DNA of 64,000 nt, taken from Escherichia coli. Lineage in GTDB: Bacteria; Pseudomonadota; Gammaproteobacteria; Enterobacterales; Enterobacteriaceae. A program made the translations under genes and the position numbers. The stretch is taken from NCBI RefSeq assembly GCF_009931435.1, contig NZ_CP043414.1; one strand, written 5' to 3'. Position 1 is the stretch's first letter, and the number at the start of each line of letters is the position of its first letter. Below are positions 5,475-8,091 of this stretch, piece by piece. The notes under the pieces are model-generated. The model saw nothing but the letters and a program-made list of their open reading frames with translations, did not search any database and was not told where the DNA came from.

Positions 5475-7402
5475 TCATCCTCTCCGGATAAGGCACGGGC
5501 GTAATCTGCCAGTGTTTTCTTGTTGGTTGCTGCACCATCCTCTTCCTGCAGGCTCGCCAGCAGCGCACTGAGATCCAGCTGCCAGCGGGAAATACTGATG
5601 CGCAGCGCCGCCAGCGCATAAACGAAGCAGTCGAGCGCCTCATTGCGTCGCTTTTTGCTGTCCCACAGTATTTTTTTCCTGCCATCCCCCCATTTTTCGA
5701 CCTGCTCTTCAGCAGTCAGTTGCTGCGCTTCGGTCAGATCAAAAATATCCGGGTTATTCGGGAAGTGAACGGCACCGGGAAGCGGTTCATCCCCTCCCGG
5801 CGTCAGTGTGAAGCGGTTATAAATCTGCTCTTTCGCGGTATCCGTACCGATTTCGGTAAGGTAAACCCCGTTTTTGTTTCGCTTACGTGGCATGCTGGCC
5901 ACCGGCTTTCCGTAGACGGATGCCCCTTTAATGGGGATCACCCGGAACAGCCCATGTTTTTTCGAGCGTTCATACACAATGGTCGGGTCAATCCCGCCAG
6001 TATCCCAGCAGATACGGGATATCGACATTTCTGCACCATTCCGGCGGGTATAGGTTTTATTGATGGCCTCATCCACACGCAGCAGCGTCTGTTCATCGTC
6101 GTGGCGGCCCATAATAATCTGCCGGTCAATCAGCCAGCTTTCCTCACCCGGCCCCCATCCCCATACGCGCATTTCGTAGCGGTCCAGCTGGGAGTCGATA
6201 CCGGCGGTCAGGTAAGCCACACGGTCAGGAACGGGCGCTGAATAATGCTCTTTCCGCTCTGCCATCACTTCAGCATCCGGACGTTCGCCGATTTTCGCTT
6301 CCCACGTCTCACCGAGCGTGGTGTTCACGAAGGTTTTACGTTTTCCCGTATCCCCTTTCGTTTTCATCCAGTCTTTGACAATCTGCACCCAGGTGGAGAA
6401 CGGGCTGTACGCTGTCCAGATGTGAAAGGTCACACTGTCAGGCGGCTCAATCTCTTCACCGGATGACGAAAACCAGAGAATGCCATCACGGGTCCAGATC
6501 CCGGTCTTTTCGCAGATATAACGGGCATCAGTAAAGTCCAGCTCCTGCTGGCGGATGACGCAGGCATTATGCTCGCAGAGATAAAACACGCTGGAGGGAT
6601 CATCCGGCGTCCATTTGAGGCCAAACGGCGTCTCTTTGTCGCCAAATTTAAGGTACTGTTCCTCCCCGCAGTGCGGGCAGGCAACATGAAAACGCATAAA
6701 ATGCGGGGATTCACTGGCTGCACGCTCAATCTGACAGGTGCCTCTCACTTTGGGCGTGGAGCCACGGATGGACTTTGGCCAGACCGAGCCTTCAATACGC
6801 TTGTCACCCAGGAACGTCGGAGAGCCTTCCTGTTCAATATCATCATCAAAGGCAGCAAGTTCATCATAACCCGCCACATCCACCGACTTTTCACGGTAGT
6901 TTTTTGCCGCTTTACCGCCCAGGCACCAGAAGCCACGCCCATTAGTGAAACGCTTCATGGTGAGCGTGTTATCCCGGTGCTTTTTGCCATACCACGGGGC
7001 CAGCGCCAGCAGCGACGGAATATCACGAATAGTCGGCTCAACGTGGGTTTTCATAAAGTTCTCGGCATCACCATCCGTCGGCAACCAGATAAGGGTGTTG
7101 CGCTGCTTATGCTCTATGAAGTAGGCATAAACACCCAGCAGCATTTTGGAATAACCAACACGGGCAGACTTCACCACATTCACCTCACGGATGTAGTCGC
7201 TGCCCATCGCATTCATGATGGCCCGCTGAAAGGGCAGTGTTTCCCAGCGCCCTTCCTGATATGCGGATTCTTTCGGGAGATAGTAATTGGCATCCGCCCA
7301 TTCAACGGGGGTCATTGGCAATGGTCTTTTCAGGACTGAGAGACCCGCCTTCACTGCCAATACGAAATTATTCATCTGTATTTCTGTAATACTCATCCGC
7401 AA
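5471..7402 (-). CDS. A: Terminase large subunit (gpA-like); N-terminal ~40 aa diverge from lambda, the rest is near-identical
   Basis: 643 aa; from ...[42 protein letters not shown] onward matches lambda gpA, but the N-terminus ([29 protein letters not shown]) does not. Confidence 0.95.
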
Positions 7403-7898
7403 ATTCCTTCATTTTTTCAGCAGACTCAACGCATTTATTAGCCCCCTTCGCAACCAGCTCTTTTAGATAAGCCAATTGTCTGCCTGTCAATTCAGGGAAT
7501 TTTCTTTGCATCGAAAGCGGAATACTGTCCAAAACAGATGCCAGTTCTCCGGATAACCGGGACAGGGCAAAAATAGAGAAAGCTGTATCAATCACCTTAT
7601 GCTCTGCAACCTGGTTTTTTAACCGCTGAGCAATAGCCTGTTCTTCCGTCAGGTTAACCCTGGCCTGAAGTAGCCTTTCCTCAAGATCATTTTCACCACC
7701 TGAAGATTTCTGGTTTTGTTGACGTCGCTCGCGATCTATCTCCAGTACAGTTTTAACGTCATAGAAAACCTCTCTCCCCCGGCGCTCAACAGGAGGAACA
7801 CCCCATTTATCAAATGCCTGTACAGAGATACCGATGGAGGAGGCCATGTCGCTTTTATTCAATAAAAAGGCCACAGCCCCTCCATAAACCACCGGCAA
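7368..7898 (-). CDS. Nu1: Terminase small subunit (Nu1-like, divergent DNA-binding N-terminus)
   Basis: C-terminal half (...IDTAFSIFALSRLSGELASVLDSIPLSMQRKFPELTGRQLAYLKELV...) aligns with recalled lambda Nu1; the N-terminal wHTH region differs. Start uncertain (7898 or 7850). Confidence 0.75.
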   Translation of the reverse strand: MPVVYGGAVAFLLNKSDMASSIGISVQAFDKWGVPPVERRGREVFYDVKTVLEIDRERRQQNQKSSGGENDLEERLLQARVNLTEEQAIAQRLKNQVAEHKVIDTAFSIFALSRLSGELASVLDSIPLSMQRKFPELTGRQLAYLKELVAKGANKCVESAEKMKEFADEYYRNTDE

Positions 7899-8079
7899 AA
7901 AAGCAATACAACAACCACGTTTTTTGTAAAACCCTCTGATTTTACATGCTTTTTCGTATAAGAAAGATCATCAGGTTGTTGTGTTTATTTTTCTTTCTTA
8001 TTACTTATCAAGTAGATATATCAAACGATAAAACAACAACCATCACCTCAAAAAAACTCGTAAATAGCGAAAACCCGCG

Positions 8080-8091
8080 AGGTCGCCGCCC
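8080..8091 (-). other. cos: cosN cohesive-end site (12-nt lambda-type GGGCGGCGACCT on the minus strand)
   Basis: Plus strand reads aggtcgccgccc, preceded by gcgaaaacccgcg, which is the reverse complement of the lambda left-end sequence GGGCGGCGACCTCGCGGGTTTTCGC; lies ~185 bp upstream of Nu1. Coordinates +/-2 nt. Confidence 0.65.

Follow-up and report, generated by a model that had tools for sequence, protein, structure and literature searches.

A probable natural recombinant packaging module in an Escherichia coli lambdoid prophage: an N15/Monarch-type cassette on a lambda-type motor and heads

The packaging specificity of lambda-like phages has been exchanged in the laboratory. The hybrid phages lambda 21hy51 and lambda N15hy4 of the Feiss laboratory, in which a foreign cosB and the DNA-binding domain of the terminase small subunit (TerS) are grafted onto the lambda motor and heads, are viable and have changed packaging specificity (PMC4669245). 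The Monarch group, in the account given in PMC4669245 (citing Feiss et al. 2015), combines an N15-type R3 box and recognition helix with a lambda-style tripartite cosB that has a site for integration host factor (IHF) and no rR2. Here we analyse a stretch of 64,000 nucleotides from Escherichia coli (contig NZ_CP043414.1 of assembly GCF_009931435.1; the whole stretch is called the window) that carries the cos site, terminase genes and head genes of a lambdoid prophage. With a probability of about 85%, this locus represents a packaging module recombined in nature, with a non-lambda cassette joined to a lambda-type motor and lambda-type heads.

The mosaic structure is observed directly in alignments with lambda. 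A BLAST comparison gives a single alignment, window 1–7319 with lambda 8109–788, at 97.5% identity. It takes in the head genes W, B, C/Nu3, D, E, FI, FII and part of Z (1..5470, minus strand; 97.5% identical to lambda 8109–2637) and, contiguous with them, the lambda-type body of the terminase large subunit (TerL; 5471..7306, minus strand), with its ATPase and endonuclease domains and portal-binding C-terminus. In the cos–terminase region, identities to lambda were determined by segment-wise global alignments, each with a shuffled control. The first 31 bp of cos are 100% identical (shuffled 44.0%). The values are 48.1% (shuffled 45.0%) for cosB from bp 32 to the TerS start (cos bp 32–216), 51.3% (47.2%) for the DNA of the TerS gene and 53.8% (44.1%) for TerL codons 1–29. 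TerL codons 30–641 are 98.9% identical in DNA (48.2%) and 99.5% in protein. Identity climbs from background to ∼99% inside roughly 10 bp, and base-level alignments to lambda place the recombination junction at 7306..7315 (minus strand), in codons ∼28–31 of gene A. The non-lambda cassette is contiguous and ∼750 bp long, from cos bp 32 to TerL codon ∼29; it comprises most of the I2 spacer, a tripartite cosB, the whole TerS gene and the first ∼30 codons of TerL. Its junction sits at the start of a highly conserved stretch of TerL coding sequence, which is where a join by homologous recombination would be expected.

An earlier note, made from the letters of this DNA without database searches, had described a mosaic packaging module with a breakpoint inside gene A, and the alignment to lambda agrees with it: the differences form an abrupt block replacement and not scattered point substitutions. 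It had also taken the cosN 12-mer and ∼20 bp beyond it as lambda sequence, and the 12-mer plus the next 19 bp (cos bp 1–31) are indeed identical. The DNA between cosN and Nu1 differs from lambda as had been stated, with 48% identity against 45% for shuffled sequence and with non-lambda R boxes. Two of its boundaries have to be redrawn. The near-identity of gpA is real, but it does not begin at about residue 40; the divergent part of TerL is its N-terminal ∼30 residues, which are 43% identical to lambda gpA. Nu1 does diverge, but not only in its DNA-binding N-terminus: the whole of TerS is about 39% identical to lambda Nu1 (about 37–40%, similar in both halves).

The lambda-identical cos bp 1–31 were considered as a left recombination boundary and rejected, because the other lambda-like cos sites in the comparison largely conserve this segment too. 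The cosN/I2 segment is largely conserved also in other tripartite loci and in the 21-type phage that was compared, and I2 is strongly conserved among lambda-like phages (PMC4856287). The match to lambda in this segment therefore says little about recombination.

Divergence of the cassette region in place, rather than by replacement, would fit the diversifying selection that is expected on specificity determinants, and the replaced proteins are still homologous to those of lambda at about 40% identity. Such a history is effectively refuted by the leap in identity from background to 98.9% within about 10 bp. Moreover, parts of the cassette occur on non-lambda partners (an N15-type DNA-binding domain with 21-type TerL, and the 'type W' TerS C-terminus described below with a 21-type domain). 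The lambda-type TerL body is present in thousands of E. coli genomes, and every lambda-type match listed starts at the same boundary, window 7319 (query position 402).

The cos site is read on the minus strand, starting with cosQ, the packaging termination site, which is defined as a conserved heptamer (PMC4669245) and can be read off the sequence as GGGTCCT at 8114..8120. The 12-nucleotide cohesive end of cosN, GGGCGGCGACCT, lies at 8080..8091 on the same strand and is identical to that of lambda; window 8091 is cos bp 1. Next comes an I2-like AT-rich spacer (8042..8074, cos bp 18–50, minus strand) that keeps the lambda sequence through bp 31 and departs from it at bp 32. The sequence GGTTGTTGT occurs exactly three times in the 64 kb window, in each case within 134 bp between cosN and TerS, and in the order direct, inverted, direct. 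The first copy (8033–8041, cos bp 51–59) is the core of a predicted TerS-binding box of N15 type, R3 (8030..8044, minus strand). The inverted copy, R2, is at 7974..7982 (cos bp 110–118, plus strand), 59 bp from R3, and the second direct copy, R1, is at 7908..7916 (cos bp 176–184, minus strand), 42 bp upstream of the TerS start. GGTTGTTGT is also the core of the R3 box of N15, where it occupies bp 50–58, and the longer GGTTGTTGTTT matches R3-N15 in 11/11 positions (bp 51–61 in the window and 50–60 in N15). A candidate I1-like IHF site, TATCAAGTAGATA, at 8006..8018 (cos bp 74–86, plus strand) has one mismatch to WATCAANNNNTTR and is flanked by an A/T-rich tract; lambda has a comparable one-mismatch match on the same strand and at nearly the same position (bp 79–91). 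The search of cosB for R sites and an IHF site that had been proposed earlier thus returned three N15-type boxes and one candidate IHF site.

No lambda-type R boxes (CGTTTCC core) were found in cosB, and no 21-type boxes ATGTCCGG or CCGGACAT. Phage 21 was represented here by a proxy, PhiR12, in which bp 56 is a G:C pair; the same has been reported for R3-21. An rR2-like site is absent from the TerS gene (7368–7874) at two or fewer mismatches, and the N15 positive control was recovered at bp 248–258. Five tripartite loci, from E. coli, Klebsiella and Salmonella, have an unchanged TTGATAA in the IHF-like site. Together with R3, R2 and R1 this sequence forms a set of conserved footprints across the loci of these three genera, while the intervening DNA and cosN vary.

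TerS (the Nu1 homolog; 168 amino acids, GTG start; 7368..7874, minus strand) belongs to PF07471 (77 bits), and TerL (the gpA homolog; 641 codons; 5471–7396, minus strand) matches PF05876 (172 bits) and PF20454 (250 bits). All of these matches are above the curated cut-offs, and both open reading frames are intact and full-length. The GTG start of TerS agrees with the call of the Prokaryotic Genome Annotation Pipeline (PGAP) in near-identical E. coli genomes, and the 3' end of TerS overlaps the 5' end of TerL by 29 nt. With a 12/12 match of the cohesive end, a cosQ and a Phage_Nu1-family TerS overlapping a gpA-type TerL, the locus has the sequence features of a lambda-like cos system.

Residues 1–50 of TerS are an N15-type winged helix–turn–helix DNA-binding domain that is 74% identical to N15 gp1, and the recognition helix GISVQAFDKWGV is identical in the two proteins. 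The same domain is 40% identical to lambda Nu1 and 12–16% identical to 21-type proteins. The features of the lambda packaging type (CGTTTCC boxes and a gpNu1-type recognition helix) are not present, nor are those of phage 21 (ATGTCCGG boxes and the 21-type domain MATQ.EVA..L.LT.RQLRRL). Beyond residue 50, TerS consists of a core and a TerL-binding C-terminus that we call type W. The C-terminus of TerS is the TerL-binding domain in the described systems (PMC9026076, PMC4669245). TerL codons 1–30 (7307..7396, minus strand) encode a non-lambda N-terminus, also of type W, that is probably the segment specifying TerS binding. Frackman et al. (1985) and Wu et al. (1988) reportedly located TerS specificity in the N-terminal 48 residues of gpA.

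The TerS of the window is a catalogued E. coli protein, and a protein search finds relatives with 70–81% identity in Klebsiella, Salmonella and other enterobacteria. A sequence search of the PDB with TerS gave no match at E ≤ 0.01. Four E. coli variants (P0020, P0024, P0027 and P0036) are 100% identical to the TerS of the window up to about residue 107 and continue with unrelated sequence, which suggests deletions or fusions that disrupt the TerS gene in some strains.

The features listed above for the Monarch group are all found in the window as far as that published account specifies them: the R3 match, the N15-identical recognition helix, three R boxes with R2 inverted, an IHF-type site that separates R3 from R2 and a lack of rR2, in addition to lambda-like ends. 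Judged from its sequence, the cassette is of the N15/Monarch type and thus of a kind already described; this assignment follows the published description of the Monarch group, in the form in which PMC4669245 gives it, and not a comparison with Monarch itself. The TerL and head genes of the group are not stated in that description, whereas the TerL body and heads in the window are about 99% lambda. N15 shares with the window the R-box sequence, the type of DNA-binding domain and, within 1 bp, the position of R3. It differs in its simple cosB, which has R3 only, no IHF site and a remote rR2, whereas the window has R2, R1 and an IHF-like site and lacks rR2. The cosN of N15 differs at bp 9 and 12 from that of the window, which is lambda's. 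Furthermore, the TerS C-terminus and TerL N-terminus of N15 are lambda-type, with a TerL body that is 88% identical, and the TerS C-terminus of the window is only 36–40% identical to that of N15.

With lambda itself the locus shares the cosQ heptamer, cosN, cos bp 1–31, the order R3–I1–R2–R1, a TerL body that is ∼99.5% identical and the downstream head genes. The R3–R2 distance is 61 bp in lambda (counted by hand) versus 59 bp in the window, the R2–R1 spacing is 41 versus 66 bp and the cosQ–cosN distance is 30 versus 29 bp. The R-box sequence, TerS and TerL residues 1–30 (43%) are different. The hybrids lambda 21hy51 and lambda N15hy4 resemble the window in that a foreign cosB and TerS DNA-binding domain sit on the lambda motor and heads. 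Their junction, however, is inside the TerS gene, giving a chimeric TerS with a lambda C-terminus, whereas the junction in the window lies in TerL codons ∼28–31. In the window the hybrid arose naturally, and its foreign part takes in all of TerS as well as the N-terminal TerS-binding segment of TerL.

Co-variation among relatives was observed in a panel of 91 typed loci, 11 of them reference or genomic loci and 80 from IMG/VR. The type of R box tracks the type of TerS DNA-binding domain without exception: GGTTGTTGT boxes accompany N15-type domains and ATGTCCGG boxes accompany 21-type domains, whatever the cosN variant, the TerS C-terminus or the TerL type. N15-type R boxes are present in 80/80 IMG/VR loci that have an N15-type DNA-binding domain and enough upstream DNA, and ∼71 of these are tripartite. 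The type of the N-terminal 30 residues of TerL equals the type of the TerS C-terminus in 69/69 loci, which is compatible with co-adaptation but falls short of proof. The earlier expectation that the Nu1 DNA-binding domain and the N-terminus of A would both co-vary with cosB is therefore correct for the domain, while the N-terminus of A follows the TerS C-terminus instead.

At least two different TerS C-terminal halves are combined with the N15-type DNA-binding domain, which is also seen with 21-type TerL; among the relatives, the commoner partner of this cosB is in fact a 21-type TerS C-terminus and TerL. The type-W TerL N-terminus is in turn seen with either an N15-type or a 21-type cosB and DNA-binding domain. 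The latter case is L009 (a Citrobacter-type contig, 700–1420; proteins P0035/P0046), which combines a 21-type DNA-binding domain with a type-W TerS C-terminus and TerL N-terminus. Its R boxes are 21-type ATGTCCGG with an inverted copy, and its cohesive end is N15-type GGGCGGCGTCCG. This combination indicates that cosN, the cosB/DNA-binding domain pair and the TerS C-terminus/TerL N-terminus pair all assort independently. The TerL body assorts separately from the TerL N-terminal type as well: a type-W N-terminus is found on a body that is at least 97% lambda in 17–20 loci and on a 92–93% body in five loci. The latter five may resemble the donor lineage.

Some loci of the panel have unusual cos sites. 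In L011 (E. coli CP028741) the cosB is tripartite and N15-type, and the cosN position, ∼230 bp upstream of TerS, is very divergent and reads approximately GGGTCGGCAGAC; this may be an unusual cohesive-end variant. L016, L038 and three similar IMG/VR loci have an N15-type DNA-binding domain (90–92%) and a cosN GGGCGACGTCCG; a single exact R box in direct orientation and an R2-like ACAACC were found in them, but no R1. Their layout looks intermediate between the complex cosB of Monarch and the simple cosB of N15.

The mechanism that we propose follows the lambda model (PMC4669245, PMC4856287, PMC9026076). The dimeric N15-type winged helix–turn–helix of TerS would bind R3 and R2, which would be drawn together by an IHF-assisted bend at I1. 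The C-terminal domain of TerS would hold TerL via the matched N-terminal ∼30 residues, and the lambda-type TerL endonuclease would thereby be positioned to nick the lambda-identical cosN. The lambda-type C-terminus of TerL would dock onto the lambda-type portal. Both matched interfaces, that of cosB with the DNA-binding domain and that of the TerS C-terminus with the TerL N-terminus, lie within the cassette. The cassette can therefore be exchanged in one piece with the enzyme left intact, and a functional terminase should result when it is joined to a lambda TerL body at codon ∼30.

The packaging specificity is predicted from these features to be N15/Monarch-type, a specificity that, in the account of PMC4669245, is only suggested for Monarch itself. 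In helper assays, lambda and 21 terminases package cosB-N15 DNA at about 10^-4 of self, and the N15-specific terminase packages lambda-cosB DNA at roughly 20–50% of the efficiency on its own DNA (PMC4669245). By analogy, lambda and 21 terminases should fail to package DNA with the cosB of the window, and the terminase of the window may still package lambda-cosB DNA. The one-way nature of these results means that a specificity distinct from lambda, as had been suggested for this locus, is probably true in only one direction: the cosB and TerS types are non-lambda, but the predicted N15-type recognition is asymmetric.

The tolerance of the N15-specific terminase for lambda-cosB DNA also feeds a different interpretation, in which the specificity of the cassette is effectively that of lambda and its R boxes and TerS are neutral variants, so that the mosaic has no consequence for specificity. 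Lambda and N15 are said to 'share' specificity in the direction of N15 terminase on lambda DNA (PMC9026076), and cosQ, cosN and cos bp 1–31 are lambda-like. The same helper experiments, however, include the value of about 10^-4 for lambda and 21 terminases on cosB-N15 DNA. The GGTTGTTGT boxes are unrelated to the CGTTTCC of lambda, as is the recognition helix to its lambda counterpart, and the strict tracking of R box and DNA-binding domain over 91 loci argues for a specific constraint. We regard neutrality as quite improbable and retain the N15/Monarch-type prediction.

Two details of the cos region set the locus apart from most of its relatives. The distance from cosQ to cosN bp 1 is 29 bp instead of the usual 30, as GGGTCCTTTCCGG has become GGGTCCTTCCGG (window 8092–8120, minus strand), and the 22 bp that separate cosQ from cosN are unusually divergent from lambda. 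Nearly all other typed loci have 30 bp, among them lambda, N15, the 21-type phage and those of Klebsiella and Salmonella; departures from this distance were seen in L007, in four IMG/VR loci that carry the same cassette and in one 21-type IMG/VR locus whose cosN is a variant. The second detail concerns bp 30–35 of I2 (window 8057–8062), a hexamer reported as critical in lambda in the work that defines I2 (PMC4856287). It reads TACGAG versus TATGAA in lambda, with differences at bp 32 and 35; TATGAG is found in the close relative L008, and the Klebsiella locus L013 reads TATGAA.

The cassette is present in 21/5,426 complete E. coli genomes at a coverage of at least 80%, where it is 96.6–99.8% conserved, and 21/21 align continuously over the same TerL junction. 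The carriers come from different hosts and continents and have different prophage backgrounds and right arms; the right arm has a GH108 endolysin cassette in the window and a region resembling that of Shiga toxin (Stx) phages in strain 2015C-4136CT1. Strains 442/2, SOI121 and MS 119-7 are among the carriers. None of 50,697 phage records carries the cassette: megablast and blastn returned only cosN and short matches to N15 gene 1, and the best tblastn match was 50% identical.

The zero count among cultured phages (0/50,697 records) would suit a decaying remnant, that is, a cryptic prophage with a non-working packaging cassette in which the mosaic is the fossil of a past exchange. The right arm resembles those of cryptic Rac/Qin-type prophages (dicB, hokD/sok, ydaT and DUF968 genes), the cosQ–cosN spacing is 29 and not 30 bp, bp 32 and 35 of I2 differ from lambda, and other E. 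coli carry truncated or fused forms of this TerS (P0020, P0024, P0027 and P0036). On the other hand, TerS and TerL are full-length with all expected domains, and cosQ, cosN, R3, I1, R2 and R1 are intact. The head genes are 97.5% lambda in one uninterrupted alignment, and integrase, Q and lysis genes are present in the prophage. Finally, the conservation of 96.6–99.8% in 21 genomes of varied hosts, continents and prophage backgrounds implies recent mobility. We consider decay unlikely, though less so than neutrality of the cassette, and the prophage may be active.

A few observations count against the reading as a natural recombinant module with an N15/Monarch-type cassette. The crossover was bracketed with type-W relatives, which only stand in for the true parent. 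The TerS C-terminus and the TerL N-terminus are adjacent and encoded with a 29 nt overlap, so that linkage may explain their co-occurrence as much as co-adaptation. The IHF-like site fits its consensus with one mismatch, and its TTR part varies among the relatives. Either the 29 bp cosQ–cosN spacing or the two changes in the I2 hexamer could lower packaging efficiency. The tail end of the prophage lies beyond the window, and no functional data for this locus or for any Monarch-type cosB were found in the literature.

The prophage spans window 1 to ∼32.4 kb, and position 1 cuts into its tail genes. Its right arm belongs to the Rac/Qin type (dicB, ydaT, DUF968, RusA and Q) and has no DNA similarity to lambda. 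Several small open reading frames without assigned function (8100–9850) separate cos from a non-lambda lysis cassette (9856–11111, minus strand) with a GH108-family endolysin and two holin-family genes. In the early region of the prophage, a sok antitoxin RNA (RF01794, 105 bits) at 18788–18962 (minus strand) adjoins a hokD-type toxin gene. At the end of the prophage (∼32300) a tyrosine integrase lies beside yccA, and the host genes yccA, tusE, yccX, rlmI and hspQ follow. The host part of the window also contains a PyrD leader (59251–59324) and naRNA4 (63774–63852), and no tRNA genes were found in the whole 64 kb. A hijacker of the cos/Rpp type, as carried by phage-inducible chromosomal islands (PICIs), was considered and rejected, because a full TerL, with a complete head module of lambda, comes directly after the TerS homolog.

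All three elements, the cosB type, the logic of the domains and the mosaicism, were established before, and the locus is a real but ordinary case of phage module swapping. Two points are, we suggest, modestly new: a third TerS–TerL assembly allele and a specificity segment of ∼30 residues. That the type-W TerS C-terminus and TerL N-terminus represent a third, mutually exclusive subunit-assembly specificity beside the lambda and 21 types is a tentative proposal, to which we give somewhat under even odds. If true, the determinant of TerS specificity in TerL would narrow from the classical N-terminal ∼48 residues to ∼30, and lambda-like terminases would have three interfaces that can be exchanged independently, one between cosB and the DNA-binding domain, one between the C-terminus of TerS and the N-terminus of TerL, and one between the C-terminus of TerL and the portal.

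This locus is a clean equivalent in nature of the classical lambda–21 and lambda–N15 hybrid phages. It shows a recognition cassette that travels as one unit, with conserved sequence at its borders, from one lambdoid phage to another, and the panel of relatives gives population-level support to the two-interface model of terminase specificity. For annotation, a TerL that is '99% lambda' does not imply lambda packaging specificity. Cross-packaging among co-resident prophages, cosmids or PICIs depends on this cassette of ∼750 bp. Because N15-type recognition is asymmetric, a prophage of this kind might package the DNA of a resident lambda-cosB prophage while being immune to the reverse.

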